Under the pieces are notes generated by a model. That model was not told the DNA's origin. It did no database searches and saw only the letters and a program-made list of their open reading frames with translations. Position numbers and translations under genes: made by a program. DNA of 64,000 nucleotides from Vicinamibacterales bacterium (GTDB lineage: Bacteria > Acidobacteriota > Vicinamibacteria > Vicinamibacterales > UBA8438): positions 3,542,091-3,606,090 of the forward strand of contig OZ244881.1 of the NCBI GenBank assembly GCA_965221305.1, given 5' to 3'. Below are positions 26,698 to 61,103 of this stretch, one piece after another (position 1 is the first letter of the stretch; each line of letters opens with the position of its first letter).

Positions 26698-26738
26698 GCG
26701 CGCGTCCGCTCCGGTGCGCGGACGTCGGCGGTTCAGGC

Positions 26739-26791
26739 CAGCACGGGATGCCGAATCGGTTCGTTCTGGCACGCGTGAGCGCCCTGCCACG
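26739..26791. repeat. Left copy of an imperfect direct repeat bracketing the BREX cassette
   Basis: ~40/53 identity to 42396..42448, including the perfect 14-mer GCCGAATCGGTTCG (26750-26763 versus 42407-42420). Confidence 0.6.
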
Positions 26792-26960
26792 TCAGAGTTG
26801 AGCCGGCGTTCGAAGCCCGAGCTGCCAGCCGTACCGCTGCCCGCCCAACCCATCCTGTACCGAGTCGCCGTCGTCCCCGGAGCGGCGCGCCGCCCCAGCT
26901 CCGCCAACCGTTGCCTGCGGCTCCGCTTGGCGCTTGCTACGGCGCAGGTCCTGAGCTTCG

Positions 26961-29723: not shown

Positions 29724-32700
29724 GGGCCGTCCTTCGCGTCGCGCAGCAGCTTCCAGGTGATCTCCATTCGCGCGCCCGGCTGCTTGCGCAGCAGGTCCTC
29801 CAGCTCCGCTGCGAGTTCGCTCAGCTGTCGGCAATCCAGGTCGCGGCGCGACCCCTCGGGCGGGATGGCGTCGCCGCCCAGGTCGGTTACCTCGCGTACA
29901 GTGGCCCCACCACTGCCGGTTCCTTGGCCGGCCGTCGGCCGATGCGGCGCTGGGGGCGCCGGCGAGCGCGCCAGCAGTTTGGCGGCCCGGCCGACAAGAT
30001 CGGACAGTCGGGGGGCCAGCGCCACGGCGTACTCGTCGGCGGCCAGCGCCGCCGCCAACTCGCGGCGAACGCGCTGCGCGTCGTCAGCGCGATCGTCCTT
30101 CAATTCGGCGAGCGGGGCGAAGATCTGCCAATGCGTGCGCTCCAGCACGTCCGCGAGCTCTCCCGCCTTGGCGATGCTCGTCCGCATCGCCTCCAGCGAG
30201 GTCACCGGCTCCAACGCTGCGAGCTTCTCGACCCGCACCCGGCCGTGGAGACCCGCGAGAGACTGCACGAGGGCGCCGCTCGCGCGGGCGGTGCGGAGTC
30301 GGTTGGCGGTCTTCGCGTCGATGGAGACGTCCGCTCCAACGGCAGCGAGTCGTTCGATCAGTGCGTCGCAGGCAGCGCTTTGCTTCGTCGCCGTCTCGCC
30401 GAGCTGTTCCGCGAGGTCGCTCACGTTGCTCGCGTTGCGCAACGGCGACCCCGTCAGCCCGAACAGCCGCTTGGCCCGCTCGACGGCGGCGGTCCACTCG
30501 TCCGCGGACGGCAGCGCCTCTTCGCGCAGCTCGACGTCATCCGGCAGGTCGTCGAGCTTCGCCGGCCACGAAGCCCCGTGCCGCCGGAACGCGAGGTTGG
30601 CCTGATCCGCGTAGACGAGGATGACGAGGTTCGCGGCGGCGTTCGGGAGCCCCATGCGCTGCGGCTCGTCCACGGCCTCGCGGAGCCTGCCGACGGTCAG
30701 TGGCTTTTCCAGCCGCTCGAAGTGGCTGAACCAGTGCCGGCCGACCACGAAGTGGGTCTCGCCCATCTCGCCGAGCCGCAGCGGGGCGGCGATCTGCATC
30801 ATCGCCGGGCGGAGCGGCTTGTCGATGGCGACGCGTCCCTCCGGTTCCTGCACGGCGCGCGACACCTGCTCGTGCACGCGGCGCAGCGCCGCCGCTCCTA
30901 TCGGGGCACCGAAGTCGGGGTGCGCCGGGAACTGGCTCGCACACATCTGCTCGAACAGGTTCGCGAGCGCCTCCCGCAGATTCGCTCGTGCCGGGGGGCG
31001 GGGCTCGAATCTCGGATCGAGGGACTGGAAGTGCTCTGCCGGCGGGAGCGACTCGTCGACCGACCCGGGTACGGGACTCTCCACGCCGTAGGCGCCCTCC
31101 AGGTGCTGGACCAGCCGCTGCCGGAGCTGGCTCTGCTGGTTCCGCATGAGCTCACGGGCGGACGTCTGCTCGGCCGGCGAGAGATGCGCCGCGAATTCGC
31201 GCAACCGCTCGCCGGCCAGGACATAGTCGATACGCACCAGCGTCCCGAGATCCTTCTGCGCAGACGTGCTCAGGAAGGACGGCAACCAGACCAGCGTCCG
31301 CGCCCCGGCATCACGCCCACGAAACTCCTTGAGGCGTGCGAGGTCATCGGCCGGCGTATGCCCCGGATCGTCGAAGGGGAAGTCGATGACTACCTTGCGT
31401 TCGTCCCCCCGCGTCGTCAACGACTCGTCGGGCAACTCCCGTACGTTGGCGAAGATCACCTCGAAGCGGCGCCGCGTGCCCCGCCACGTCGTCTCGTGGT
31501 AGAGAACGAGTTCGTCGCGATCCTCGATGCCGAGCGCGTCGAACAGGACCCTCCGGATCAGGCGGCGCCGGTTGCCGGCGTTGTCGTGCCGGCTGGCGTC
31601 GGCGAGGATGCTCTCGGTGTCTACGGCCGAGAGCTGAATGGCGATGATCGGATCGGCCGGGTCGTCACCAATCCGGACCTCCCCGATCTCGGCTGCCCAG
31701 GCGCGACAGCGCCGCAGCACTTCCTGCCCCTCGCGCCCCTCGATCGGCGTACGTATGGACCCGTGATTGAGCGCCGCGAGCCGCGCCGCGTTCAGATTCT
31801 TGAGCGCGTCGACCTCGGGGGTCAGGGCCGACAGCAGCAGCGTCTTGGCTAACCGATCGTCCGCACGGAGGGCGCGGGCCGCCCCGTCGTCCTTCGGTCG
31901 CGCCGCCGCCGCCGTCTTCGAGATCCCGCGCTCGTTCTCGATGAGCGGGAGGAGTTTCCGGCGGTAGAGGTTCCGCGCGTTCTCGAAGTGGTGGCGTGCA
32001 CTCTCGGTGAACGGCTCGTCGCCCTCGGCCAGCGCGTCGAAGAGGTCGCCGACCGGTACGATTTCGCCCAGCTCGAGCGTCTCGCGCCCGTCGACGAGGA
32101 TCTGGAGCATCACCCTCAGCGCCGTCCGTTCGCGTTGGAGGAGTGAGGAGACCGCGACCAGGGTCTCGACCAGGGCCGGACTGAAGGGGTAGACCTTGCG
32201 GAACGCGGCGGTGTCGGCGCGCGGGGTGAGCAGTGTCTCGAAGACCTCCCGGCGCACTCTCTCGGTCTGCGCGTAGGCGTCGTCGATCTCCCGTCGCGCC
32301 GCCTCGTTCCGCGGCCGCAGCAGGCGGCGCGCCGCTATGTCGGGCAGGTTCCGGTCCTCCAGCGTGATGCGCTCGAAGCGGGCCTCCCACCACTGCAGCA
32401 CGTCCGCGAAGCCGAGCTGCAGCGCGCCCGTCACCTGTTCACCCACGAGTTCGCGCAGGTCGCGCTGGCGCGCGACGAAGCTGACGATCGGGATCGCTCG
32501 CCCGGCCGTCTCCGCCTCGACGAGCTTCGAGACCTTCGGGCCCTCCTTGTTGAGGAACTGGAGATCGGCGGCGTGAGTGGCGAGCCAGAGGATCAGCTCG
32601 TCGAGAAAGAGCACCAGGGCGTCGTAACCCAGGTCGTGCGCGTGCCGGGCCACCACCGCCAGGCCGTCGTCCAGCGGGACGAATGCCTCTTCGCTTCCTC

Positions 32701-33409
32701 GCATCACGTCGCGGTAGCTGCTGAAGAACGAGCCGAGCAGCGCCGCGACCAGCCGGATCCGCTCTTCAGCTACGGCGGGGGCGTCGAGCGCGGCCTCGAA
32801 GCTCGCGGCGTCCCACTGCGTTGACAGATTGCCCCAGCCGGCGGCGGCTCCTGCTGCGCTCGCGGCAGTCTCGTTCAGGCGGGCGAAGAACGTCTCGTCG
32901 CCGACTTCCTTCCGCAGCCTCCGGGCGTCCTCGAACAGCCCGGCGCTGCGGTACACTCCCGGTGCGGGTGCGTCGGGATGCAGCTCGGCGACGCGCGCCG
33001 CGTAGCCCCCGAGCACCGCCGCTTCCAGGCTCGGTTTCCCGATCATGTGATAGGGAACCAGCAGGAAGCGCCGATCGGCGAGCCAGTCGTCGTGCCGCGT
33101 GACGACGCCTTCCAGGCCTGCGGTGGCGCGGGCCTCCGCCTCCTGCTGCAGCAGGAGGTGGAGTACCGCCATGAAGTGGCTCTTGCCGCTGCCGAAGCTC
33201 CCGTGCAGGTAGGCCGCCTTGCTCGATCCGCTCTCCACCGCGGTCTTGATCAGACCGAGGGCGCGGTCGAAAGCGCCGGCGAGCTGCGGCGTCACGACGT
33301 AGGTCCGCAGCGTCTCTGCGGGCTTCGCCACGCCCTCGGCAAGCCGCAGGACGAAGTCGTCGCGGTGCACCCGCTCGGGGATGTCGATCAGGTCGCGGAG
33401 CGGCGTCAT
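29720..33409 (-). CDS. pglY: BREX/Pgl P-loop ATPase PglY
   Basis: ATG at 33409 overlaps the stop of the NTase-HEPN ORF (ATGA). Walker A is GSFGSGKSHF and Walker B-like is LVLFLDELILW. About 1229 aa. The upstream 131 codons of the track ORF are R/G-rich and overlap the HEPN gene. Confidence 0.85.
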   Translation of the reverse strand: MTPLRDLIDIPERVHRDDFVLRLAEGVAKPAETLRTYVVTPQLAGAFDRALGLIKTAVESGSSKAAYLHGSFGSGKSHFMAVLHLLLQQEAEARATAGLEGVVTRHDDWLADRRFLLVPYHMIGKPSLEAAVLGGYAARVAELHPDAPAPGVYRSAGLFEDARRLRKEVGDETFFARLNETAASAAGAAAGWGNLSTQWDAASFEAALDAPAVAEERIRLVAALLGSFFSSYRDVMRGSEEAFVPLDDGLAVVARHAHDLGYDALVLFLDELILWLATHAADLQFLNKEGPKVSKLVEAETAGRAIPIVSFVARQRDLRELVGEQVTGALQLGFADVLQWWEARFERITLEDRNLPDIAARRLLRPRNEAARREIDDAYAQTERVRREVFETLLTPRADTAAFRKVYPFSPALVETLVAVSSLLQRERTALRVMLQILVDGRETLELGEIVPVGDLFDALAEGDEPFTESARHHFENARNLYRRKLLPLIENERGISKTAAAARPKDDGAARALRADDRLAKTLLLSALTPEVDALKNLNAARLAALNHGSIRTPIEGREGQEVLRRCRAWAAEIGEVRIGDDPADPIIAIQLSAVDTESILADASRHDNAGNRRRLIRRVLFDALGIEDRDELVLYHETTWRGTRRRFEVIFANVRELPDESLTTRGDERKVVIDFPFDDPGHTPADDLARLKEFRGRDAGARTLVWLPSFLSTSAQKDLGTLVRIDYVLAGERLREFAAHLSPAEQTSARELMRNQQSQLRQRLVQHLEGAYGVESPVPGSVDESLPPAEHFQSLDPRFEPRPPARANLREALANLFEQMCASQFPAHPDFGAPIGAAALRRVHEQVSRAVQEPEGRVAIDKPLRPAMMQIAAPLRLGEMGETHFVVGRHWFSHFERLEKPLTVGRLREAVDEPQRMGLPNAAANLVILVYADQANLAFRRHGASWPAKLDDLPDDVELREEALPSADEWTAAVERAKRLFGLTGSPLRNASNVSDLAEQLGETATKQSAACDALIERLAAVGADVSIDAKTANRLRTARASGALVQSLAGLHGRVRVEKLAALEPVTSLEAMRTSIAKAGELADVLERTHWQIFAPLAELKDDRADDAQRVRRELAAALAADEYAVALAPRLSDLVGRAAKLLARSPAPPAPHRPTAGQGTGSGGATVREVTDLGGDAIPPEGSRRDLDCRQLSELAAELEDLLRKQPGARMEITWKLLRDAKDGP

Positions 33410-34293
33410 GTGGGGTCCGGCGCTGCGGCCGGCAGGAGCGACGCGACACGCCCGACCGCCCAACCGACGACGGTTGCTGCATTCGCCATGGCCTGCTCGT
33501 ATTCCGCCATCGTTGTCGGTTCCTGCTCGTCGCTGACATCCGGGTACCGTCCACCGTCGCCATAGAGCGTCAGCGCCGCCCCCTGCCGCACGTCGTCGGG
33601 AATCACCTCGCCGACCTGTTCCGCCCGGTCGAGCAGACGACCGATGTCGTGCACATATGGAAACGGTTCGCCGTGCGCGATGATGACGGCCTTGACGGCC
33701 TTTTCGGCTCCGTAGTGGGCCTCCGAGCACAACAACCGGAGGTTCAGTCCTGGTTCGTGCCTTGCGGCGATCTTCAGGTGATCTTGCGCTTCCGTAATCC
33801 ACAGTCGAGCGGCATCCGCTTCGAGCGCGCGGCGCGGGTTCATGGCAGCGCTACTCCCCTGGAGAGGAACCGGCGCCGCCGAACCGTCAGGCTCGATCCG
33901 TTTCGGTGGTGAGGGCGGCCCGGGCGAGCTTCCCCGGCCCCGGAGCGCCGATTGACCTGCCTGTTTCGATGGCTCTTCATGGATCGTCCTGCCCTCCCGC
34001 AGCGCCGGCGCGATGACCAGCCAGTGCGAATCGCGGTGCCTGACGAGATCCTCGGGCCAGACCACCACCACATCGACAGCGGGTCGCGGCCGGGGCAGAC
34101 CGAGGTAGATGCGGGCCGCCGTCTTCCTCCGATGACACTTGTCCTTGACGACAAGCAGGTCGACGTCACTCGACGACGTCATCTCCCCCCGGGCGGCGGA
34201 ACCGAACAGGATGATCTTCTCCGGCGCCACCGCGTCAACGATGCTCTCGACGATGCGTTCAAGGACGCCGTTCGGCAGTGCTCGATCCATCAT
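33406..34293 (-). CDS. Fused nucleotidyltransferase (MNT-like) - HEPN domain protein
   Basis: A single 295-aa ORF. The N-terminal part carries the NTase signature GSAARGEMTSSSDVDLLVV. A P/S/G-rich linker follows. The C-terminal part is HEPN-like: AEKAVKAVIIAHGEPFPYVHDIGRLLD ... LYGDGGRYP. An internal ATG at ~33843 could also express HEPN alone. Confidence 0.8.
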   Translation of the reverse strand: MMDRALPNGVLERIVESIVDAVAPEKIILFGSAARGEMTSSSDVDLLVVKDKCHRRKTAARIYLGLPRPRPAVDVVVVWPEDLVRHRDSHWLVIAPALREGRTIHEEPSKQAGQSALRGRGSSPGPPSPPKRIEPDGSAAPVPLQGSSAAMNPRRALEADAARLWITEAQDHLKIAARHEPGLNLRLLCSEAHYGAEKAVKAVIIAHGEPFPYVHDIGRLLDRAEQVGEVIPDDVRQGAALTLYGDGGRYPDVSDEQEPTTMAEYEQAMANAATVVGWAVGRVASLLPAAAPDPT

Positions 34294-34350
34294 CGCGATT
34301 ATGCCGCCTTGGCAGGCGCGTCGACAATCCCCGCCGAAACGCCGGCCGGA

Positions 34351-37300
34351 TCACGTGGCCCTTCCGCGGCGGCCGCGCTTTGCCGCACCGCCCGGCGGCG
34401 CCCAGCCCCGGAGCGACTCACGGGTCAGCGAGAGCGACCGCGCCTCGTCGTCGATGAACGCCTCGAAGTAGTCGCCCATCCCCACGTCGAACTCGGGGTC
34501 GGGCGCATTGTGGTACTGCCGTACCCACGGCAGCAGCTCCAGCAAGGCCGCCAGGAGGGGCGCCAGCCGCTCGGCCGTCCAGCCCTCCTGCTCCCGCATC
34601 CGGTTATAGTACCCGGCAACGGCCCGGCTTTGCGCCAGCGCGTCCCAGCCCGCCCAGGCGACGACCAGGGAAGGGTCGGCGTCGCGCTCGCAGCCCGGCA
34701 GACTCACGAAGCGCTCCTTCGGCACGTCGAGCTTGCCCCGCAGGCGCCACCAGTGGCTCTTGCGGAAGTCGGCCGACGCATAGCGCGGCGGGCCGGGGAC
34801 CGGGCCCACCTCCTCCGCCTTGAGTGCCACCGCTGCTTCCGCGGTCAGGCGCTCAGGGTCCCCCGCGGGCAGGGTGACCCGTGCGTCGATGGCGTCCTCC
34901 CTCCGCTGCAACGCCCAGGTGCGCTCCCAGGCGGCGCGCTTGCGGAGCCCGGACGGCCTGTAGCGCAACACCGGGAGCAGCGGGACGCTCTCGTCGTCGA
35001 TCAGTCGGGCGACCAGCTTCGCAACATCGAAGTCGGCGCGCCCGGCATACAGCGCCGCCACCTGCTGGAACTCGGCGTCGTCCCGCACGCGGTCGGCCAG
35101 CGCCGCGGTGGTCGTGAGGCGCCGCTCCGACCAGAGCGCGGGCGCTTCGAGTCGGTCGAGCAACCAACCCCGCAGCGCCCGTTCCTGCTGCGCCTCCCAC
35201 GGCTCGTCGTTCCAGCGGCGCTTGTACTCGGGCCGCTCGATCAGGGCGACGTTGGCGTTTCGCTCGATGGTCTCGATGCGCCGCCGGACGAGTGCGCGGT
35301 AGGCGGCCGGCCAGTGCGCCGGGATCTCGGTGATCGGCGTCGAGCCGTGGCGTTCGAACCACTTCGTCTCGATCTCGCCGGCCGCCATCTTTCGCGCGAG
35401 GACGATCTCGAAGGCACGCTCGCCGAGGCGGACAGCGGGCACGTCGGTGCTCTTCGCGGAAGGCACGCAGAGCGCGCTATCGGTCACGCCGTAGAGCCCG
35501 TAGCAGCGCCAGTCGAGTTCTTCCTGGAGGGCGATCATCTGTTCGCGAAGCTCACCGCATCGAGCGCGCGCCGTGTCCAGGTCAGCGGCTGAAGGCGTAC
35601 TACGTTCGGCAATTGAGGCTGGAAGGGACTGAGCCCTGTCGGCTGCGGCGGAGTCAAGTATTCGTGCGAATTCGAGTGGCGTGTCGCTGGGTATCGGACA
35701 ACGGTGGAGTTTCGTGCCATCGAACTCGTAGAACTGTTCCCATTCCTCGGTCGCCAAGCCGCCACCAATCCCCCCGCCACCCTTGTTGTGAAGGGCCTGT
35801 TTCATCCAGAAACAAGCCGTCGAACTATTGAGTAAGCCCAGCAGTTCCAGATGGTCGTCCTCGGTGGCGTCTGCGGGAAGCTTGATCACCGGTGCTGTTC
35901 GCTTGAAGACCTTGCCTCCGCGGTCGAGCACGAAGTGATTGTGCGTTGTAACGAAGGCAAAAGTAATGGAGAGCGGATTTCGAAATCGTTCACGAAAGAA
36001 CATAGAGTACTCATACCATGTCAGTCCGCGTTCGATCTGCGATTGTCCATAAGCAATACGTTGAACAAGTCGAGATCGCCAGGGCCACAGAGACTTTAGT
36101 ACCGCTGGGTCCGCGATTGTCTCCAGGGTTTGGGAATCGTATGGCCAAATCGCACCCACCGATTCACAGATGGTCCAGTCACGAACATCCTCGCCCGCCG
36201 TGAGCGGACGAATCTGATCCGCTCCGATGCTCCGACGCTTGGCAACTCGCGTTCCGAGGCGGAATGCTTCATCCTCGCGCGTAACCGCTCCGAAGCCTAT
36301 CTCCGTGGCCATATCGCCGAGCGTCTTTGGTGCCCACTGTGCAAGGTGCTCCTTCAGTTCTGCAGCTCCCCCCCCGCCGACGCTCCAGGGATGCGTGTGG
36401 AACCGTTCTCTCTGCACATCCGACGCGCTCACGAACTTGCTCTGTGATCCAGGATAGTCGACCTGTTCGATGATCGCCGACCAGACAAGTCCACGCGCTG
36501 GATTCTCCGGTGTCGTCGGCTCACCATGGATGCCCATCACTGTGCGCACGTTCCTGTCGACTGGCCGGCGGTGTCGTCCGAAGAGGATCACCGTGGGTGT
36601 CCCGTGGCCGGGGATGTAGGCGCCGGAGGTGTCCACGACGTGGGTCAGGTCCCAGCGCGGGACAAACGTTTCGATTAGACATTTGCCGAACTCTCTCTTC
36701 ATGAACGAGTTGGCGGTGATCATCCCAACGAACCCGGCCGGCTCCGTGGAGCCGGCCGGGGAGACGTGGGCGAGGTCGAAGAGACGCTCGGTGAACGGCA
36801 CCGCCAGCGAGTACTGCCGGTAGCAGGACTTGAAACGCCTGCGGTACTCGTCGTTCACTGCCTTGTCCTTGGCGGTGATGTATGGCGGGTTGCCGACCAC
36901 CGCGTGGTAGCGGCGGCCGAGGATGACCCGCAGTGCGGAGGCGTCCTCCGTGCGGTAGACGTGACCCAGCGGGTCGCGTTCGGGATCGAGGTACTCCTGC
37001 CGCGCACCGGCTGTCCCGGCACGCGGGCCGTGGAGCAGGGCGTCGCCGGTCGCCACGTGAATCTCGAACGCGGGTGCGTCGGCGAGGCGCTGCACGCCGG
37101 CCGCATGGAGGGCCGCGACGCACAGGCGGAAGCGGGCTATCGCGGTCGCGAACGGGTTCAGGTCGACGCCGGCCACTTGCCGGAGAACACGGCTCGCCCG
37201 GTTGCGAGCGTTCGTGCCGGGCTCGTGCCGCGCCCAGAGCGCGTCCAGTCTTCGGAAGGCGCCGAGCAGGAAGTGTCCGGAGCCGCAGGCGGGGTCGATC

Positions 37301-38016
37301 AGGCGCACGTCGCGGAAACCGAACTCCTCGATGGCGGGATCGAGTGTGCGGTCGAGGATGAACTCCTCCACGAACGCGGGCGTCTGGAGCAGCGCGTACC
37401 GTCGGCGGGCGCTGTCGGAGAGGTCCTGATAGAGGTCGCCGAGAAAGCGCGTGTCCCAGGCCGTGTCGGTGAAGTCGTGCGCGAGGGCGCCGGAATCGGG
37501 GTCTATGCGTTGCCACAGGCCGAGCAGCCGGCCCGCGGCGTCACCCGAGGGAGCGCGAAACTGCTGGCCCGGCGGTTCGAGCGACCAGATGGGATTGTGG
37601 GCTTCGTCGAAGATGCGGTCGGCGACGGGCAGCGCGGCCACCTTGCGAAACACGTGGAGCAGGTAGTCGCGGTCGCTCTCTTTGGGGTTCGCCCGGAAGT
37701 AGAGGGTGTGCTCGTCGAGCGCCCGCCGGCGCCGGTCGCCGGGACCCGACAACCGCGGTGGGTCGATGAGGGCGTTGTCTTCGAGAAACCGCACGAAGAC
37801 GCAGCCGAGAATCCAGGCTACGGCGACCTGGGTCAGGTGCTCGTCGCGCCAGGAATCGTACGGCTCGGCGGTGCGTTCGTGCGCGCGCGCCTCGTTGTGC
37901 ATGCGTCGGAGGTGAACATCCAGCCGCGGCTCCTCGCCGCAACACGCCCGCAGGTCGTCCTCCAGGTCCGCCCGCAGACGCTTCAGGTCGGCGAGCAGGC
38001 GGTCGCTGTCGATCAC
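34351..38016 (-). CDS. pglX: BREX/Pgl N6-adenine DNA methyltransferase PglX
   Basis: SAM motif I is IDPACGSGHFLL and motif IV is VVGNPPYI (nt ~36881-36892). About 1221 aa. The proposed GTG start at 38016 overlaps the pglW stop (GTGA). The track start at 38088 is an alternative. Confidence 0.9.
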   Translation of the reverse strand: MIDSDRLLADLKRLRADLEDDLRACCGEEPRLDVHLRRMHNEARAHERTAEPYDSWRDEHLTQVAVAWILGCVFVRFLEDNALIDPPRLSGPGDRRRRALDEHTLYFRANPKESDRDYLLHVFRKVAALPVADRIFDEAHNPIWSLEPPGQQFRAPSGDAAGRLLGLWQRIDPDSGALAHDFTDTAWDTRFLGDLYQDLSDSARRRYALLQTPAFVEEFILDRTLDPAIEEFGFRDVRLIDPACGSGHFLLGAFRRLDALWARHEPGTNARNRASRVLRQVAGVDLNPFATAIARFRLCVAALHAAGVQRLADAPAFEIHVATGDALLHGPRAGTAGARQEYLDPERDPLGHVYRTEDASALRVILGRRYHAVVGNPPYITAKDKAVNDEYRRRFKSCYRQYSLAVPFTERLFDLAHVSPAGSTEPAGFVGMITANSFMKREFGKCLIETFVPRWDLTHVVDTSGAYIPGHGTPTVILFGRHRRPVDRNVRTVMGIHGEPTTPENPARGLVWSAIIEQVDYPGSQSKFVSASDVQRERFHTHPWSVGGGGAAELKEHLAQWAPKTLGDMATEIGFGAVTREDEAFRLGTRVAKRRSIGADQIRPLTAGEDVRDWTICESVGAIWPYDSQTLETIADPAVLKSLWPWRSRLVQRIAYGQSQIERGLTWYEYSMFFRERFRNPLSITFAFVTTHNHFVLDRGGKVFKRTAPVIKLPADATEDDHLELLGLLNSSTACFWMKQALHNKGGGGIGGGLATEEWEQFYEFDGTKLHRCPIPSDTPLEFARILDSAAADRAQSLPASIAERSTPSAADLDTARARCGELREQMIALQEELDWRCYGLYGVTDSALCVPSAKSTDVPAVRLGERAFEIVLARKMAAGEIETKWFERHGSTPITEIPAHWPAAYRALVRRRIETIERNANVALIERPEYKRRWNDEPWEAQQERALRGWLLDRLEAPALWSERRLTTTAALADRVRDDAEFQQVAALYAGRADFDVAKLVARLIDDESVPLLPVLRYRPSGLRKRAAWERTWALQRREDAIDARVTLPAGDPERLTAEAAVALKAEEVGPVPGPPRYASADFRKSHWWRLRGKLDVPKERFVSLPGCERDADPSLVVAWAGWDALAQSRAVAGYYNRMREQEGWTAERLAPLLAALLELLPWVRQYHNAPDPEFDVGMGDYFEAFIDDEARSLSLTRESLRGWAPPGGAAKRGRRGRAT

Positions 38017-41000
38017 GCCGTGGCCACTCCCGACGGCGGCGCCGCCGGGCCGTTGGCGGCGAGCCACGTCGGGGGAATGCGAGCCCACTGCGCGGCCGTG
38101 AACACGGGGACGGGTGCGCCATCGACCATGGGGCGCGACTCCTGTGCATCGGACGGAACGAGCAGCCAGACGCCGGGCGGCCCGTCCGGTCCTCCCGCAG
38201 CATCCCGGAGGTGGTCGAGCAGCGTCATCTGGTCGTAGCGGGCCAACAGACCCAGGTTCGTCAGCAGCAACGGGCGCGGTGCGGCGGCCAGCTCGGCCCG
38301 CACGCGCGGCAGGGCGCGGTGGCTGACCAGGCGCATGAGGGCGGCCCAGTCGGCGCTGCCGCGCGGCTCGTCGTCAGCGCGCAGAACGATACCCCAGTCC
38401 GCGCCAGCTTCGTCGGCGGCGGCCTTCATATGTCGGATCAGCAGCTCGTCGGCACTGCGGGCGTCGATGGCGAATTGCGAGACCAGGGCACGCTCCGCGT
38501 CCGCGAGCCGGCGGGGCGATACCGTCAGGGCGAGGAAAGCCTGGTTCTGCAAGGCGCGTCGCAACCGTTCGTCGAAGGCGTCGGTAGCATCCATTCCGGC
38601 GCCGCTTCCGGCGACCCGTGCGGCGCCATGGCTGGCACGGGTATGGCTCGTGGCCGAGCCGATGGTCACGAAGCCCCGGAGCGGCGAGCGGTATGTGCCT
38701 AGCCCGTCAGCGGTGTCCGGCGCCCAGACCAGCTCGCTGCCCGCGTCGTGGAGCAGGGTGTCGAGTTCGGGCCGGTCGGGCAGGGGCGCCGCTTCGGGGT
38801 AGCGCCCGGCCACGCGCCTACGGATTTCTTCGGGGGTGAGGTTGCGGGCGCCCGCGAGTGCCCCCAGTGCGAGCCGCAGCGCCCGGTCGGCCGGCATGCC
38901 GCGCGGATAGAGCTCGAGCCGACTGGAGAGCTCGGCGTTCTGGGAAACCGCGGCGGCGAGCGTGAGCAGCCGGTTCGGCGCCAGGGGCGCGATTCCGGAC
39001 GGGGTCGCGACGCCCTGCAGCTCGTCCAGGACCCGCGCCGGCGAGAGCAGCGGGTCGGCGGCCGACAGCCCGTCGGCGGTGCGGCCGAGGCGTTGGGCGA
39101 AGTCGGCGAGCCGTTGGCCATCGACGCGCAGCTCGCCGCGTTCGTCGCCCACGTCGCGCGCCAGGAGGGCGCCGGCGGGGCCGTCCAGGCGGCGCACGAT
39201 CCAGCGTGGCGCCGCGCGCTGGCGCTCGACCTCGACCGCGGCGCGAACGCACGCGTCGGCGTAGCGCGAACGAAGCGGATCTTCCTGCACCGACCCGCGG
39301 CGCGCCAAGAGCGCGGAGGCAAGCTCCGTCCGGGTCATCACGTTCCCGTATGCCGCGAGCATCTCGACGACGTCGTTTCGCAGACGGGTCAGCGCGCCGA
39401 GCTTGTTCCAGCGCCGCCGCGACCGCGCCGCCGCCTGGCTGACCGCCGTCGGGGTGACCCCGAGCCACCGGGCGACGTCGCTCTGGCTCGGCCAGGGCGC
39501 CGCGGGCGCGTCGTCGCGCAGCCCCAGCAGGGTCCCCGCCAAGTCCGCGTCGCGCCGCGACTGCGCGGTTCGGCCGGCGGGCAGAAGCAGCCGCCGAAGC
39601 TCGTCTACGCTCTCGTGCCCCGCGTCGGCGGTAACGTCGGCGTCGTCTCCGGTGGAGGAGACCTTCGGCGCGCCGGCCACCCCCGGGAACCGCTCGGCCA
39701 GCCGCCGGGCCAGATCGGTGATCTCGCGGCGGGTCCGAATGCCGACGCCGCGCATCCGGTTCACCTGGATGAGCGGGAACCGCAACAGGTCGCCAACGGA
39801 GTGGACGCCCATCCGCTCGACGGCGTTCATGGCGCGGGCGCTGAGCTTCATGGCCGCCAACAGCGTGTCGAGACGCGCCTGCTCGATGCCGCTGAACGTG
39901 GGCTCTGCGCCCACGGGGTCGGTGTCGGTCTCGGGCCGCGCCGCCGTCGCGAAGAGCCGCCGCCAAGCGCGCAGCATCTCGTCGGCGTTGTCGAAGCGCT
40001 GGCGGTAGTCGCGGCGCAGCGCCTTTTGGAAGAACGCGGTCAGGTCTTCGCGGACGGCTGGCTCGAAGGCGTCGGCGTCGACGGTGGCTTCGCACTCGAG
40101 GACCGCGGGCTCACTCTGCCCGTCGCCCCAACACGGCAGCGATCCAGCCGCCATCTGGTGCAGCGTGACGGCCGCCGCGAACCGTTCCGCGTGCGTGTCC
40201 CAGCGCGGCGGCTTGCGCGTCCGGAGGAACGGGTCGAGGTAGTGGCGCGTGCCCGCCAGGACGTTCTCGGCCGGTGTATGCGCCAACGAGAAGTCGAAGA
40301 GCACGAGATGGAGCTGGTTGCCAATCTTGGCGGTTCCCAGGTTCTCGGGCTTGATGTCGCGGTGCGGAATGCCCTTCTGCTCCAGCCAGTCGATGGTGGC
40401 CAGCAGGTCTTCGCCGAACCGCTCGAGCAGCTCCAGGTGCAGGCGGCCCTCGTCGCGCAGGCGGTCCGCGAGCGTGCAGTCGCCGGCGCGGGCCATGAGC
40501 AGCCCGACGCGTTCGCGGCCCGCGCCGTGGCGGAACGTCAGCTCGTCGTGGAGCTCGACGATGTACTGATGCCGCAGGCGGCGCATGACGTCCGCCTCGG
40601 CACGCAGGCGGTCGTTGTGGTCGGGAGACAGCGCCACCTTGAGCACATGCTCCCGCCCGTCGCGTTCGACGAGGAGGGCCACCGCCGTCGAGCCCTTGCC
40701 GAGCCGCCGCTTCATGACAAGGCCGTGGCCGAGATCTTCTTCGGGGCGGGCCTCGATCGGGTCATGTCGGCGACCCTCGTCGGGCCGGGTCAGCTCTTCC
40801 TCGACGCTTCCGAGCTCGTTCAGGAACTCGCCGACCGACCCGAGCCGCGTCGTCACTTCGGGATGAGTGGCGTACTGCACGAGAAGCTGAAGGCTCTCGC
40901 ACGCGCCGTCGAGGTCGGAGGATAGCTGCAGCCCCTGCTCCTTCAGGAGCCGCTCGGTCATGGCGGCGAGACCCGTCGCCGGCGGGCGGCCGGAGAAGAG

Positions 41001-42272
41001 GTGGTACGCGATGGCGCCGACCGAGAACACGTCGATCTGCTCGCCTGCCGCGCCGCGCTCGGTCACCGCCTCGGGCGCCATGTAGACCCAGGCGGCCTCT
41101 TCGACGAACGGGTCGAGGCGGCTCGCCCCCGTCGTGGCCGGCCCGGGCGTCCCGGTGTCGGCCGCGTGGCGTGCCCCGGTCTGCCAGTTGAAGATCTGGA
41201 CGCGCGGCTGGGCGGCCTCGGGGTCGAAGACGAGGATGCTCTGAGGCGACAACGCCCGGTGGACAAGGTGCTTCGCATGGGCGAAGCGCACGGCTTCCGC
41301 AACTTGGCGGAGGAGATGCAGCCGGGTGTCGACGTCGAGGCGCGTGCCGTGCTCGGCGAGCCAGTGGTCGAAGCGCTGCGAGTCTTCCCGGTGCTCGAAG
41401 ACGAGCGCCGGCCCGCGGACGTGCTCGGTGTACGCCTTGGCCGCGAGGATGCCGTCGTGGCGCACATCGCTCAGGATCTGGTACTCGCGCTGGGCCGCCC
41501 GTTGCAGCGCCGCCCGTTCGTCGTCCGACGCGTCTGGGGGAATCGCGTAGATTCGGACCCGCGCGTGCTCGCCCTCGATCGCCGCGTGACGCGCTGTCCA
41601 GTCCTGGTAGTTCGGCCCTTCGAAGAGGAGTGCGTCGAGCCGGTAGTCGCCCACCCGGTGCTTGCCCTGCGACGGGCGGATGCCCGCTTCCTGCATGGCC
41701 CGGCTGACAGCCTTGGCCATCGGCCGATCGATACGCGCGCGGTGCGGCGTCCCGGCGCTGTGCCGGGTGAGGGCGGCAACGATGCCAGGGCGCTCGTTCC
41801 GCCCCTTGCCTTCGTCACGGCAGTGGACGTGGTTGCGCAGGTCGTCCGTGAGCCGGCAGTCGACGTCCTCGTGCGACAGGAAGACCTGGGCTTCCAGGAA
41901 AGGGCTCGCCGCCTTCCGCAGCGCCGGCTGACGGCGCAGGAGCGAAACGAGCTTCTTCGCCTTCCGGTTCGCGAGCAGCAGCGGGTTGTCGACCGTCTGC
42001 GGGCGCCCGTCGCCCCGCCAGACCCACGTGCCCTGGTCGCCCTCCACGGTGCCGGGGCGGCTCTTGATCTCGACGAGGTAGAAGCCCTTCGGCGTCAGCG
42101 CGAGCAGGTCGACTTCGTTGATCGAGCCGTCGTCGGCGATGAACTCGAAGTTCGCCCAGGCGCGGTACGGCTCGTGGTCGGGCAGCCGGTCGCGCACGAA
42201 CGCCAGCGCGTCCCGCTCCCAGGGGAACGCCGAGTCGGTGACCGCCTGCCAGCGGGGCGAAGTTGCTTCCAT
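38013..42272 (-). CDS. pglW: BREX/Pgl serine/threonine kinase PglW (NERD, degenerate kinase, canonical kinase, HhH/HTH, C-terminal region)
   Basis: N-terminal NERD-like segment (WERDALAFVRDRL..EVDLLALTPKGFYLVEIKS). The first kinase-like domain lacks the catalytic Asp (HRALSPQSIL). The second is canonical (LGKGSTAV, VLKV, HRDIKPEN, DFS). LSARAMNAVERMGVHSVGDLL is an alpha-CTD-like helix-hairpin-helix. Start taken at MEATSPRWQ. Confidence 0.9.
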   Translation of the reverse strand: MEATSPRWQAVTDSAFPWERDALAFVRDRLPDHEPYRAWANFEFIADDGSINEVDLLALTPKGFYLVEIKSRPGTVEGDQGTWVWRGDGRPQTVDNPLLLANRKAKKLVSLLRRQPALRKAASPFLEAQVFLSHEDVDCRLTDDLRNHVHCRDEGKGRNERPGIVAALTRHSAGTPHRARIDRPMAKAVSRAMQEAGIRPSQGKHRVGDYRLDALLFEGPNYQDWTARHAAIEGEHARVRIYAIPPDASDDERAALQRAAQREYQILSDVRHDGILAAKAYTEHVRGPALVFEHREDSQRFDHWLAEHGTRLDVDTRLHLLRQVAEAVRFAHAKHLVHRALSPQSILVFDPEAAQPRVQIFNWQTGARHAADTGTPGPATTGASRLDPFVEEAAWVYMAPEAVTERGAAGEQIDVFSVGAIAYHLFSGRPPATGLAAMTERLLKEQGLQLSSDLDGACESLQLLVQYATHPEVTTRLGSVGEFLNELGSVEEELTRPDEGRRHDPIEARPEEDLGHGLVMKRRLGKGSTAVALLVERDGREHVLKVALSPDHNDRLRAEADVMRRLRHQYIVELHDELTFRHGAGRERVGLLMARAGDCTLADRLRDEGRLHLELLERFGEDLLATIDWLEQKGIPHRDIKPENLGTAKIGNQLHLVLFDFSLAHTPAENVLAGTRHYLDPFLRTRKPPRWDTHAERFAAAVTLHQMAAGSLPCWGDGQSEPAVLECEATVDADAFEPAVREDLTAFFQKALRRDYRQRFDNADEMLRAWRRLFATAARPETDTDPVGAEPTFSGIEQARLDTLLAAMKLSARAMNAVERMGVHSVGDLLRFPLIQVNRMRGVGIRTRREITDLARRLAERFPGVAGAPKVSSTGDDADVTADAGHESVDELRRLLLPAGRTAQSRRDADLAGTLLGLRDDAPAAPWPSQSDVARWLGVTPTAVSQAAARSRRRWNKLGALTRLRNDVVEMLAAYGNVMTRTELASALLARRGSVQEDPLRSRYADACVRAAVEVERQRAAPRWIVRRLDGPAGALLARDVGDERGELRVDGQRLADFAQRLGRTADGLSAADPLLSPARVLDELQGVATPSGIAPLAPNRLLTLAAAVSQNAELSSRLELYPRGMPADRALRLALGALAGARNLTPEEIRRRVAGRYPEAAPLPDRPELDTLLHDAGSELVWAPDTADGLGTYRSPLRGFVTIGSATSHTRASHGAARVAGSGAGMDATDAFDERLRRALQNQAFLALTVSPRRLADAERALVSQFAIDARSADELLIRHMKAAADEAGADWGIVLRADDEPRGSADWAALMRLVSHRALPRVRAELAAAPRPLLLTNLGLLARYDQMTLLDHLRDAAGGPDGPPGVWLLVPSDAQESRPMVDGAPVPVFTAAQWARIPPTWLAANGPAAPPSGVATA

Positions 42273-42395
42273 GGCGTGGCGCACTCGCGGTGCCCCGAGC
42301 AGTCGCGGACCGCCCGGCACGCCCGAATCCTAGCCCGTCGAGCGGGCGGAGTCACCCACCATCGACAAGGCTGGCCTGCGAAAGCCTCATCACGC

Positions 42396-49881: not shown

Positions 49882-50331
49882 ATGTTCTTCTATCTCGTCC
49901 ATCACGGAGACGCGCTCGGGCCCGAGGTCGACCCCCGGCGGCCGTTGTCGTCGCGCGGGCGCGGGCAGGCCGACGCCCTCGCCGCCCAGGCCGCAGCGCG
50001 CGGGGTGCGCCCCGCCGCCGTCTGGCACAGCGGCAAGCTGCGGGCCCGGCAGACGGCCGAGGCGTACTGGCGCGCCTGCAACCCGCTGGCCGAGTTCACG
50101 GCCACCCGGTGGGCGCAGCCTGGCGACCCGCCGCGGCTCGCCGACCTGCTCGAGGTCGAGAGTCGTGACGTGATGCTGGTCGGCCACATGCCGCACGTCG
50201 ACCGGCTGCTGCGCCGGCTGCTGGGCGAGGACGCGGGCCTGTCGCCGTTCCCGGTCAACGGGCTCGTGGCGGTCGAGCGGATGGACGAGGCGTGGGTCGA
50301 GCGCTGGCGGCTCGCCGCCCCGCCGCCGTGA
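49882..50331 (+). CDS. Phosphohistidine phosphatase SixA-like (histidine phosphatase superfamily)
   Basis: MFFYLVHHGDA (RHG-like HHG motif) and MLVGHMPH are present. 149 aa. Confidence 0.7.
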   Translation: MFFYLVHHGDALGPEVDPRRPLSSRGRGQADALAAQAAARGVRPAAVWHSGKLRARQTAEAYWRACNPLAEFTATRWAQPGDPPRLADLLEVESRDVMLVGHMPHVDRLLRRLLGEDAGLSPFPVNGLVAVERMDEAWVERWRLAAPPP

Positions 50332-50417
50332 GCTGGCGCGGATCGCCGTTCGCCGCGCCGCCGCGGTGAGCTGGCGCGGATCGCCGTCTCGCCGCCGTGA
50401 GCTGGCGCGGATCGCCG
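50328..50417 (+). repeat. Triplicated 21-nt box including the SixA-like gene stop codon
   Basis: gtgagctggcgcggatcgccg occurs at ~50328, ~50366 and ~50397 (periods 38 and 31). The first copy contains the gene's TGA. Confidence 0.85.
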
Positions 50418-52068: not shown

Positions 52069-52320
52069 CGGGCCTTGGTATGCGAGGACCGAAAATTGTA
52101 GCATCAGGTTCCGGAGACGCCGGGAGGCGGGACCGGGGGCGGTGGACGCCCCGGGTCGGCGGCCTTGTCCGGCCATGTCGGCGCCCGCCGAGAGCCCGAG
52201 CGGACCCGCGTTGCGCTGTGCCCGAAGGGCGCCCAAGGGGCGGCAGCGATCGGGACGCAGGGCGGGTTCGCAGGCTGCGGATTCTCGCGGCTCCCGGACG
52301 CGGACGCACGGAGGAATCTG

Positions 52321-52791
52321 GTGGCAGAAGCAGCGGTAGTACACACGAGCCGGCTGCGGATCGAGCGTATCGGCGGTCCGCTGCGGCACGCGTATCTCGA
52401 GGGTTTCGACGAGCCGATCCGGTTCGGTGTCCACGGGGGCATCAAGGCGTTCTACGGCGTCGAACCTCCGGAGGACGTGCCGGCCACCCTGGACTACATG
52501 GTCGGCGCCGTCGGCGGTTGACTGCTCGGCACCCTTGCACGCGCACTGGAGGTGCGCGACATCCCGGCGCCGACGGAGAAGCTGCAGGCCAGCGTCGAGG
52601 GCGACATCCAGGCCATCGACAACGTGCTGCGCATCACGACGATCCGCGTGCGGTACCGCATCCGCGTTCCCTCCGGCGCCCTCGAGCGGGCCCGGCGGGC
52701 GGTCGACACCCACGCGACGAAGTGCCCCGCCGCCAACAGCGTGCGCGGTTGCATCGACCTCGACATCGACGCCGACATCACGGAGGAGTGA
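52321..52791 (+). CDS. OsmC/Ohr-family peroxiredoxin-like protein with in-frame UGA (candidate selenocysteine) at 52519-52521
   Basis: GTG start 5 nt after GGAGGA. Track ORFs 52165..52521 and 52552..52791 are in the same frame, separated only by one TGA. Read-through gives ..LDYMVGAVGG-U-LLGTLARAL.., where OsmC proteins carry the first conserved Cys. The second Cys motif (ATKCPAANS) is intact. A SECIS-like hairpin follows. Confidence 0.6.
52540..52558 (+). promoter_or_regulatory. Candidate bacterial SECIS hairpin for the OsmC-like gene
   Basis: A 7-bp stem CGCGCAC/GTGCGCG with loop TGGAG. The loop starts 25 nt after the UGA. Confidence 0.45.
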
Positions 52792-52854
52792 GCCCCCCGG
52801 GTGACCGTCGATGCCGACATCACGGAGGAGTGAGCCCCCCGGGTGACCGTCGAT
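52771..52854 (+). repeat. Perfect 42-bp tandem duplication including the OsmC-like gene's last codons and stop
   Basis: gccgacatcacggaggagtgagccccccgggtgaccgtcgat occurs twice. Confidence 0.9.
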
Positions 52855-52955
52855 CGGCATGCTTCCGGTGCGTCTCGGCATCGCGGCGGCGCGGCGACCG
52901 GGCGCTGCGGCTGGGTCGGAGAGGGTCGAGCGATGTTCGGGTGCTACCGGTGAAG

Positions 52956-53030
52956 TGCCGGTGCGGCGGCTCCGGAGTCGACGGTGCGACCCAATGCCGG
53001 TGCGGCGGCTCCGGAGTCGACGGTGCGACC
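52956..53030 (+). repeat. 35-nt direct repeat x2 (period 39) upstream of the DUF255 gene
   Basis: tgccggtgcggcggctccggagtcgacggtgcgacc occurs twice. Confidence 0.9.
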
Positions 53031-53056: not shown

Positions 53057-54661
53057 ATGCCTGCGGCCGAATCGATCGCCTGGCTCGGCTGGGGAGCCGA
53101 CGCCTTCGCGCGCGCAACCGCGGAACGGAAGCCGGTGCTGCTGTTCATCGGCGCCGCGTGGTGCCGGTGGACGGCGGAGATGGAGCGGTTCAGCTACCGC
53201 GACCCGAGGGTCGTGCGTCTCGTGGCCGACCGCTTCCTGCCGGTGCGGGTCGACGCCGAGCGACGGCCCGATGTCAGCGCCCGCTACGCCCTCGACGGCT
53301 GGCCGACCACTGCGTTCCTCACCCCTGACGGCGACCTGCTGGGAGGCGGCACGTATCTCGACGCGGACGCCCTGGCGACGGTGCTGGCCGACGTGGCCGA
53401 AGCGTTCGCCGAGCGGCGCGCCGACATAGAGGGCCGCGCGGCTGCGGCCCGCGGCGCCGTGCCCGGGCGGTCCGGTTCCGGGGGGGGTGTGGACCCCGAC
53501 GAAGAGGGGGCGGGCGGCGGCGGAACCGGTTTCGGGCCGGAGTCGGCTCGCGCCGGCGCCGCCGCGACCGCCCGCCCGCCGGCCGGTGGCGTCGGGCTGG
53601 ACGATGGCGCGGGGCCGTGGCTCCATGATCTGCTCCTGGCGCGCTTCGACGCGACCTCGGCCGGCTTCGGCGACGGGCTCAAGCGGGTCGAGGCCGACGC
53701 CCTCGCCGCCGCCCTCGTGCTGTGCCGCGAGCACGACGGTCGCGACCTGACCCGCGTCGTTACCCGCACCCTCGACGCGATGGCCGCCGGCGGCCTGTGG
53801 GACCCCATCGACGGCGGCTTCTTCCGTTACTGCGCGGGTCGCGACTGGTCGGACCCGGCGCCGGAGAAGCTGCTCGCGCCGAACGCACGCCTCCTCGACC
53901 TCTACCTGACCGCGTCGACGCTCTTCGAGCGCGAGGACTACGCGGAGAGAGCGCGAGCGCTCGTCCGCTTCGCGCACGGGACGCTGGCCGACCCCGAGGG
54001 CGGATTCTTCGCCAGCCAGCGCGGGGAGCCCGACCCGGACCACCCCGGGCGCTCTCCGGCGCCGGGGGCCGGAGCCGTCGACCGGACCGTCTACACCGAT
54101 GCCACCGCGGTCATGGCCTCCGCCTACGTGCACGGCGCGTCGGTGCTCGACGACGACTCGTTGCTGGAGTTCGCGGCCGAATCGGTCGACCGAGTGGTGA
54201 TGGCCACCTACGAGCGCGGCCGCGGTGTCGGGCATGCGGCGACCGACGGATCGAGCCCCCGCGGCCTCCTCGCCGACCAGGTGCTGGCCAGCGCCGCCCT
54301 CCTCGATCTCTACGAGGCGACGGGCCAGCCCGTCTATCTCGACATGCCCCGCGAGCTGATGGCCTACTGCCGGCACGCCCTGTGGGACGAGACCGGCGGC
54401 TTCGCCGACCGGGACCCGAGGCTGCAAGGGCCCGATGCTCCGGTCGGTCTGCTGCGCGACCCCGTCTACCCGCTCGACCTCAACTGCCGCGCCGCGATGG
54501 TTCTGGCCCGCCTCGCCGACCTCGCGGAAGAGCCCGGTCATCTCGACCTCGCCCGCTGCGCGCTCATGCGCCGGACGCCGACGTACCGCGAGCTGGGGTT
54601 GGATGGCGCCGCCTATGTCGTTGCGTTCCACGCGCTGTCGCGCACGTCGACCCTGCCGTGA
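53057..54661 (+). CDS. Thioredoxin-domain protein, DUF255/YyaL (SPATA20-like) family
   Basis: Internal ATG. The thioredoxin-like N-terminal segment is KPVLLFIGAAWCRWTAEMERFSYRDPRVV..WPTTAFLTPDG. The remainder looks like an (alpha/alpha)6-barrel. Confidence 0.75.
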   Translation: MPAAESIAWLGWGADAFARATAERKPVLLFIGAAWCRWTAEMERFSYRDPRVVRLVADRFLPVRVDAERRPDVSARYALDGWPTTAFLTPDGDLLGGGTYLDADALATVLADVAEAFAERRADIEGRAAAARGAVPGRSGSGGGVDPDEEGAGGGGTGFGPESARAGAAATARPPAGGVGLDDGAGPWLHDLLLARFDATSAGFGDGLKRVEADALAAALVLCREHDGRDLTRVVTRTLDAMAAGGLWDPIDGGFFRYCAGRDWSDPAPEKLLAPNARLLDLYLTASTLFEREDYAERARALVRFAHGTLADPEGGFFASQRGEPDPDHPGRSPAPGAGAVDRTVYTDATAVMASAYVHGASVLDDDSLLEFAAESVDRVVMATYERGRGVGHAATDGSSPRGLLADQVLASAALLDLYEATGQPVYLDMPRELMAYCRHALWDETGGFADRDPRLQGPDAPVGLLRDPVYPLDLNCRAAMVLARLADLAEEPGHLDLARCALMRRTPTYRELGLDGAAYVVAFHALSRTSTLP

Positions 54662-60661: not shown

Positions 60662-60867
60662 GTCCCAGAGCTTGCTTTGCCGTCCTGTCGCTGGTTCTCG
60701 CTGGCAAACGCCGCGAAGACGCCCCGCGACATGGGCAGCCTCTCTCAGGGACGGTAGACTGGTGGACCGTCCCTGAGTTTCCTTCGCCGTCGTGCCGCTG
60801 GCTTTTCGCTGGTCAGCGCCGCGAAAACCCCCCGCGACATGGGCAGCTTCTCTCGGGAACGGTCAAC
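60662..60867. repeat. ~100-bp direct repeat x2 (period 107) with a 10-bp hairpin at the junction
   Basis: gtccc(a/t)gag..gccgcgaa(g/a)ac(g/c)ccccgcgacatgggcagc(c/t)tctctc..ggt occurs at ~60662 and ~60769. The junction forms CAGGGACGGT-N10-ACCGTCCCTG. It lies between the SoxC-like start and the SelW-like stop. Confidence 0.85.
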
Positions 60868-61103
60868 TAGGCGGTGGGGACGGCGAGCGAGCGCAGCGCC
60901 CCGATGACCTCGTCGGGCTCGGGGAACCGCTGCTCCTTCTGCTTCGAGAAGATCAGTTCGCCGTCGGCGACCACGTCGAACTGTCCGCGGCCGCCGACCA
61001 CCACGTCGGCTTCGACCCCGAGCGCATCCTGAATCGCGGCCGCCAGACTGGTGGCCTTGGGCAGGTAATTTCAAACCTTGCAGTAGCTGATCGACACCTT
61101 CAT
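60867..61103 (-). CDS. SelW/SelT/Rdx-family small redox protein with CxxU (in-frame UGA at 61071-61073)
   Basis: Hand translation of the minus strand gives MKVSISYCKV-U-NYLPKATSLAAAIQDALGVEADVVVGGRGQFDVVADGELIFSKQKEQRFPEPDEVIGALRSLAVPTA. This matches the Rdx pattern (xxVxIxYCxxC/U..., GxFEVxvdGelifSK, FPexxEv) as I recall it. It is absent from the ORF track because of the TGA. Confidence 0.75.
61038..61056 (-). promoter_or_regulatory. Candidate SECIS hairpin for the SelW-like gene
   Basis: The mRNA reads GGCCACC-AGUCU-GGCGGCC (6 of 7 stem positions paired, with one A.C mismatch). The loop starts 21 nt after the UGA. Confidence 0.45.

Follow-up and report, generated by a model that had tools for sequence, protein, structure and literature searches.

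A candidate OsmC-like selenoprotein gene with a conserved in-frame UGA in a Vicinamibacterales genome

We analysed a 64-kb stretch of DNA from a Vicinamibacterales bacterium (contig OZ244881.1; the whole stretch is called the window here), which has a G+C content of 71.4% and, in its coding regions, a G+C content at third codon positions (GC3) near 0.9. The locus in question is at 52321-52791 on the plus strand, where the program-made list of open reading frames (ORFs) gives two ORFs in the same frame, 52165..52521 and 52552..52791. An earlier note on this DNA had proposed that the two are separated by a single TGA, and that reading through it gives an OsmC fold of about 156 residues. Both the translation and the domain search agree with this proposal. 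The region 52321-52791(+) translates into 156 codons with the TGA at 52519-52521 as the sole internal stop (VAEAAVVHTSRLRIERIGGPLRHAYLEGFDEPIRFGVHGGIKAFYGVEPPEDVPATLDYMVGAVGG*LLGTLARALEVRDIP...THATKCPAANSVRGCIDLDIDADITEE*, in which asterisks denote stops). The protein context of the internal TGA is ...DYMVGAVGG*LLGTLARALEV..., and the nucleotide context is GGU-UGA-CUG. With Cys placed at the stop, the read-through protein matched the Pfam family OsmC (PF02566) over residues 56-149 with 45.4 bits, against a gathering cut-off of 27.5 (E 1.1e-11). The second conserved Cys of the family, which the same note had located in the motif TKCPAAN, is encoded at 52723-52725. The features of the gene are as follows, where Sec stands for selenocysteine and SECIS for selenocysteine insertion sequence.

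52310..52315, plus strand: Shine-Dalgarno-like GGAGGA, read from the sequence and followed after 5 nt by the GTG start at 52321; its function is presumed
52321..52791, plus strand: full coding sequence of the predicted OsmC-like selenoprotein, 156 codons with Sec67 and Cys135, GTG start and terminal TGA at 52789-52791
52519..52521, plus strand: in-frame UGA, predicted codon of Sec67; TGA is conserved across loci and homologues have Cys
52540..52558, plus strand: SECIS-like hairpin with the stem 52540-52546 / 52552-52558 and the loop UGGAG at 52547-52551
52723..52725, plus strand: codon of the second conserved Cys (Cys135, TKCPAAN), invariant in the family alignment; predicted resolving residue

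On the evidence presented below, we consider it very probable that 52321-52791 is one gene for a 156-residue selenoprotein of the OsmC/Ohr fold, in which the UGA encodes Sec.

When the window was scanned for in-frame TGAs with coding-type GC3 on either side, two sites were obtained, 52519 and 7887. The TGA at 7887-7889(+) was rejected as a further Sec site; it genuinely terminates an HMGL-like (homocitrate/isopropylmalate synthase-type) gene, and an Iso_dh (isopropylmalate/isocitrate dehydrogenase) gene begins in frame directly after it.

The surroundings of the gene also contain near-perfect tandem duplications of 42, 39 and 38 bp at 52766-52854, 52956-53030 and 50311-50396 of the window, respectively. 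The duplication at 52766-52854 copies the last seven codons of the OsmC gene, its stop and 18 nt of the 3' flank. It is missing in the closest relatives (L002, L003 and L004), and L002 has a similar duplication of its own farther downstream. These duplications may be real slippage events or artefacts of long-read assembly.

To follow the internal TGA among relatives, species-representative genomes were scanned, which gave more than 534 relatives, and the best 80 were fetched as loci. All of these 80 came from Vicinamibacterales, Vicinamibacteria or 'Acidobacteria' metagenome-assembled genomes, many of them closed chromosomes. Subfamily 1 as analysed here consists of 82 sequences, namely the window, these 80 species-level Vicinamibacterales/Acidobacteriota genomes and one contig from ENA, with protein identities of 66-97%. 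A sister clade with the motif MMGTLA (subfamily 2) is represented by 83 loci, of which 80 were found in a metagenome scan and the remaining three are L082 and the two contigs that encode the protein P0004 (L083 and L084). Proteins of subfamily 2 are about 50% identical to the window protein, and the 80 metagenome loci have G+C contents of 44-68% and come from sediments and wetlands. TGA was present at the identical codon in 82/82 sequences of subfamily 1 and in 81/83 loci of subfamily 2, including 80/80 from the metagenome scan; the two exceptions are L083 and L084, both with TGC. In every sequence of subfamily 1 the stretch 3' of the TGA is 89-90 codons long and contains no other stop. The terminal stops vary among the 82 sequences (TAG 40, TGA 35, TAA 7), and the internal codon is invariant. 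The motif of the second Cys, xCPAAxS, is present in 73 of these 82 sequences. Most genes in the window use TGA as their regular stop, which indicates that the genetic code is not reassigned.

The protein databases reflect the same codon indirectly. Our protein search retrieved 37 relatives, mostly half-length, four being full-length. The N-terminal fragments end uniformly at ...GAVGG or ...AAVGA, and the C-terminal fragments start at (L)LGTLA, MMGTLA or ARALEV. Two of the full-length proteins have Cys in the stop column (P0002, AITSCLLGTL; P0004, AATAGCMMGTL), and the other two carry Trp. In the DNA for one of the latter, the public JGI record P0003, the 'Trp' codon is TGA (L082, 833-1303), and the source pipeline rendered UGA as Trp. 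The Trp of P0001 at the Sec position is probably also a UGA rendered in this way. A profile search against 1.84 billion cluster representatives yielded 1033 relatives, of which 384 had E <=1e-10. Among the best 150 representatives (50% identity), about 38 were N-terminal halves ending before the column, 17 were C-terminal halves starting after it and 24 were full-length with Cys there. The homologues with Cys share the pattern ...GGC[LM]xGT.... The NCBI pipeline annotates an 85-residue 'OsmC family protein' (e.g. P0006 and P0009), and in the public databases the protein appears either in unrelated halves, of about 64-107 and 85-92 residues, or with the UGA rendered as Trp (e.g. P0003).

The earlier note had placed the UGA at the first conserved, peroxide-reactive Cys of the family and had suggested an alignment with Cys-containing homologues as a check. 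When this alignment was made, the UGA fell in the Cys column of P0002, P0004 and the 24 full-length representatives with Cys, and the column itself matched the position of the first catalytic Cys in Ohr/OsmC proteins of solved structure. In the comparison of the family profile with PDB, the Sec/Cys column corresponded to the first Cys of the Mycoplasma pneumoniae OsmC-like protein 1lql, of Ohr 6d9n and of the OsmC-like protein 4mh4, and Cys135 in TKCPAAN corresponded to their second Cys (xCPxxN). The E-values of these matches are weak (0.03-0.5), though both Cys columns are consistent. In Ohr and OsmC, the first Cys is peroxidatic and the second is resolving. An AlphaFold2 model of P0002, the Cys homologue with 64% identity, had a predicted local distance difference test score (pLDDT) of 70.8. 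The top 50 PDB matches of this model in Foldseek were all OsmC/Ohr proteins, with E-values from 9e-8 and template-modelling (TM) scores of 0.5-0.6. The curated models for Ohr (TIGR03561), OsmC (TIGR03562) and SACOL1771 (TIGR03563) gave the window protein 13.7-23.6 bits, below their cut-offs of 86-166.

Downstream of the UGA, the mRNA can form the hairpin CGCGCAC-UGGAG-GUGCGCG, which begins 18 nt after the TGA and whose apical loop starts 25 nt after it. RNAfold added a U.G pair, which extends the stem to 8 bp and leaves a GGA loop (-12.1 kcal/mol, z = -3.7); 1/200 shuffled sequences was as stable. In the published consensus of bacterial SECIS (bSECIS) elements, the stem has 4-16 bp, and the loop comprises 3-9 nt with a G in its first two positions and is mostly N1-G-[G|U]-N-N2 with N1 and N2 paired; the UGA and the loop are 16-37 nt apart, and the minimum free energy is <= -7.5 kcal/mol (PMC13188914). 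The window hairpin agrees with this consensus throughout, in its stem of 7-8 bp, its loop UGGAG, its spacing of 25 nt and its energy of -12.1 kcal/mol. The 7-bp GC stem that the earlier note had described 18 nt downstream of the UGA, with the loop UGGAG within the published SECIS distance, was borne out, and constraint on synonymous sites is seen in addition.

Across 59 distinct sequences, 98.8% of the pair cells of the hairpin are standard pairs, against 1-70% in slid controls. The basal C-G pair is replaced by G-C in four sequences, a change that requires coupled R-to-G and D-to-Q replacements in the protein, and three other pairs vary through G.U only. The synonymous sites give a stronger signal for the hairpin than the covariation does. 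We calculated the synonymous entropy of 69 conserved codons with at least fourfold degeneracy (median 1.3 bits), and the lowest values were those of codons +6 to +12, the codons of the hairpin (GCA CGC GCA CTG .. GTG CGC). These codons include two GCA, despite the genome GC3 of about 0.9. The codons that flank the UGA, GGT and CTG, do not vary and are also among those of lowest entropy. In the sister clade the hairpin is a different one, CUGGCCA-CGGUGC-UGGCCGG, which is shifted by two codons (19-nt spacing, -10.4 kcal/mol); among 57 codons of that clade, variation is lowest at exactly those of the hairpin, +4 to +10.

A second gene in the window, 8.5 kb away, bears on Sec decoding in this organism.

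60867..61103, minus strand: Rdx/SelW-like CxxU selenoprotein gene (Pfam Rdx, PF10262) with UGA at 61071-61073 and SECIS hairpin at 61038-61056

The earlier note had pointed to a Sec candidate at this distance, and it proved to be a bona fide SelW-like gene. Read from 61103 to 60867(-), it has 78 codons with a canonical CxxU motif (MKVSISYCKV-UGA-NYLPKA...), and its product matches PF10262 with 59.9 bits (E 2.8e-16). The codon was TGA in 27/27 loci (the window and 26 related loci). Its hairpin, GGCCnCCA-GUC-UGGCGGCC, occupies positions +18 to +36 after the UGA and shows compensatory changes, from GGCC/GGCC to GGCU/AGCC and AGCC/GGCU. This hairpin emerged from the comparative analysis only, and the 62-nt fold around this UGA is no stabler than shuffled sequences (z = +0.8). 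SelW-like proteins rank among the selenoproteins found most often in prokaryotes (PMC1088965), and Acidobacteriota that use Sec are on record (PMC1794560, PMC12013277). The Rdx/SelW-like gene is good, if indirect, independent evidence that the organism decodes UGA as Sec.

Several results weigh against the assignment of the OsmC-like gene as a functional selenoprotein gene. The first group concerns the decoding machinery. No tRNA-Sec was found in the 64-kb window with ARAGORN or Rfam, nor in 60 related loci with ARAGORN. The Pfam search detected no SelA, SelB or SelD domains among the approximately 30 ORFs of the window, and a tblastn search with Escherichia coli SelA, SelB and SelD gave no match in all the fetched related loci (about 1.9 Mb). 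The second group concerns the hairpin. Its covariation is thin, with one pair changed on both sides, because the element is nearly invariant, and in five sequences the basal pair is a C.A mismatch. The contig L083, which encodes the Cys form P0004, retains 6/7 pairs of the sister-clade hairpin, so the pairing could partly be a by-product of the coding sequence for L-A-T-V-L-A, or else a fossil SECIS; the hairpins of L083 and L084 could be such fossils after a recent switch from Sec to Cys. There was also no match to the SECIS families of Rfam, as expected from the diversity of bacterial SECIS elements, and around the UGA permissive E-values yielded nothing but noise. Finally, the peroxidase function is predicted from distant homology, since the PDB matches have E-values of 0.03-0.5 and the curated Ohr, OsmC and SACOL1771 models score far below cut-off.

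Two candidates from the searches for the machinery were rejected. A faint match to SepSecS in the window sits under a strong match to a pyridoxal phosphate (PLP)-dependent decarboxylase and was regarded as cross-talk between families. A 94-nt 'tRNA-Val(GAC)' reported by ARAGORN at 24717-24810(+) was considered as a possible allo-tRNA, but it is a false positive, being coding-like sequence with no match to the Rfam tRNA family even at E <=10. The 120 best matches of a database search with E. coli SelA were all from enteric bacteria, and this result is uninformative for Vicinamibacterales.

Among the explanations without Sec, read-through of the UGA to another residue survives best, although we consider it improbable. 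The UGA would then be read by an acidobacterial allo-tRNA, by a SelC*-type tRNA-Cys delivered by SelB, or as Trp or Cys by a near-cognate tRNA under stimulation by the hairpin. Allo-tRNAs of Acidobacteria have been described as possible nonsense suppressors, and the SelC* tRNA-Cys mimics tRNA-Sec (Mukai et al., PMC5389517); the lack of Sec machinery in the window and the fetched related loci is compatible with such decoding. On the other side, the codon occupies a column of redox-active Cys, the position that Sec takes in the known OsmC-like selenoprotein family, the hairpin fits the bSECIS model of the SelB type, a classical SelW-like CxxU gene is nearby and the window has no allo-tRNA. The narrower form of this idea, in which an acidobacterial non-canonical suppressor tRNA (an allo-tRNA or a SelC*-like tRNA) reads the UGA and the hairpin and bypasses canonical SelA, SelB and tRNA-Sec, appears slightly less probable still. 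If it were true, the 'selenoprotein' genes of Vicinamibacterales would be cases of programmed, structure-guided recoding of opal codons to another residue.

A genuinely split gene, with termination at the UGA and re-initiation just downstream, would yield two polypeptides that together adopt an OsmC-like fold lacking the first catalytic residue. The ATG ATG that directly follows the TGA in subfamily 2 would suit this arrangement, and gene callers predict both halves. The window subfamily, however, has CTG CTC after the TGA, with neither a start codon nor a Shine-Dalgarno sequence. The break would also delete exactly the catalytic Cys column, whereas the Cys homologues are uninterrupted, and the conserved, synonymously constrained hairpin would be left without a role. 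We therefore regard a split gene as very improbable.

The least tenable explanation, which we hold to be negligible, is that the TGA is a plain nonsense mutation or an error of sequencing or assembly and that the ORFs are decaying remnants: the public annotation does call only halves, such as the 85-residue 'OsmC family protein' entries P0006 and P0009, and odd tandem duplications do adjoin the gene in the window, but 82/82 and 81/83 independent loci share this TGA, purifying selection acts on both halves, no second stop occurs while the terminal stop varies, and a stop kept at one codon across 66-97% identity is not the behaviour of a pseudogene. The conserved TGA, the intact frame downstream of it and the Cys homologues together form the signature of a Cys/Sec pair, which excludes a pseudogene or an assembly error.

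We next consider how the predicted selenoprotein relates to known systems. OsmC-like selenoproteins were first reported in 2005 from the Sargasso Sea by Zhang, Fomenko and Gladyshev, with three sequences, the motif UxxT and an assignment to COG1765 (PMC1088965), and then in 2008 from the Global Ocean Sampling data, with five Sec against 161 Cys forms (PMC2398784); they are also listed in reviews of 2022 and 2026. The precedent from marine metagenome surveys that the earlier note had named is correct. A published sequence, AACY01145085 (...AGIGFuLLTQLKRY...KQGCFAENL...; supplement of PMC1088965), is 27% identical to the window protein over 118 residues, with the Sec column and the second-Cys column both aligned. 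The marine proteins and the window protein share the PF02566 domain, a similar context of the Sec column (..IGF-U-LLTQL.. and ..VGG-U-LLGTL.., respectively), the aligned second Cys (KQGCFAEN and TKCPAAN) and, after the UGA, a short GC hairpin whose loop contains G. The motif differs, being U-x-x-x-T (ULLGT or UMMGT) in the window subfamily and UxxT in the marine family. The hosts also differ, since the window type occurs in high-GC Vicinamibacterales and sediment bacteria, whereas the known family occurs in low-GC marine plankton, and the window clade has a conserved neighbourhood of its own, in which a divergent PLP decarboxylase precedes the gene and a DUF255 gene follows it. The model NF041052, 'OsmC-related (seleno)protein' (cut-off 95), gave AACY01145085 157 bits, the window protein 25.6 bits and P0001, P0002 and P0004 16-25 bits, and it did not match P0003. 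The shared Sec position, together with the NF041052 score below cut-off, indicates a separate OsmC subfamily that is a distant sister of the known one. The Sec-containing OsmC protein is thus a kind of selenoprotein known since 2005, and the window subfamily is distinct from it and is annotated in public as two halves.

The Ohr/OsmC hydroperoxide reductases (Pseudomonas aeruginosa Ohr 1n2f, E. coli OsmC 1nye/1qwi and the M. pneumoniae protein 1lql) resemble the window protein in fold and in both catalytic Cys positions, and the same chemistry of a peroxidatic and a resolving residue is predicted for it. The window protein is unlike these enzymes in having Sec for the peroxidatic Cys, and the sequence similarity is marginal. 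The prokaryotic SelW-like/Rdx selenoproteins are matched by the neighbouring gene at 60867-61103(-) with its canonical CxxU, which encodes a protein distinct from OsmC.

For the working of the gene, we infer Sec insertion, the peroxidase chemistry, the substrate and the reductant from these families and from the established bacterial mechanism of Sec decoding. During translation, the SelB.GTP.Sec-tRNA(Sec) complex would bind the hairpin at 52540-52558, and selenocysteine would be delivered at the UGA at 52519-52521 in place of termination. By analogy with the two-Cys Ohr/OsmC hydroperoxide reductases, Sec67 would stand in for the peroxidatic Cys and attack the hydroperoxide, which would convert it into a selenenic acid. 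Cys135 would then resolve the selenenic acid into an intramolecular selenenylsulfide, and a thiol reductant would reduce the latter; a candidate for this reductant is a monothiol DUF255 protein of the thioredoxin fold encoded downstream.

53057..54661, plus strand: DUF255/thioredoxin-fold gene (Pfam Thioredox_DsbH); its longest ORF starts at 52859, and homology starts near 53057

In 75/81 loci this gene is the immediate downstream neighbour of the Sec-OsmC gene, in the same orientation, and no terminator-like site was found between the two genes. The product bears the monothiol motif W-C-x-W-T/S, at the site where other DUF255 proteins have CxxC. As a speculation, the DUF255 protein may be the redox partner or reductant of Sec-OsmC, and the two could form a previously undescribed selenium-dependent pair for the reduction of peroxides. 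The order of genes is shared between the window and L001, which is 69% identical, and runs from a ModE-like regulator through ModABC, CitMHS, the PLP decarboxylase, OsmC and the DUF255 thioredoxin to a transketolase.

Several hundred species-level genomes encode the OsmC subfamily (more than 534 relatives, with TGA in all of the best 80), which is also abundant in metagenomes from sediments and wetlands. Its recognition corrects gene models that are split or carry Trp and would add a second clade of OsmC type to the prokaryotic selenoproteome. It would also mark the Vicinamibacterales, a major acidobacterial order of soils and sediments, as users of Sec. The finding leaves the present knowledge of selenoprotein biology and of OsmC/Ohr chemistry unchanged and would not surprise a specialist.

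Elsewhere in the window, an ORF of 1,438 codons at 38013-42329(-) contains a NERD nuclease-related domain together with two protein-kinase domains and a domain like the C-terminal domain of the RNA polymerase alpha subunit. The adjoining region of about 11 kb (26700-38100) contains very long minus-strand ORFs that fail the GC3 coding filter.

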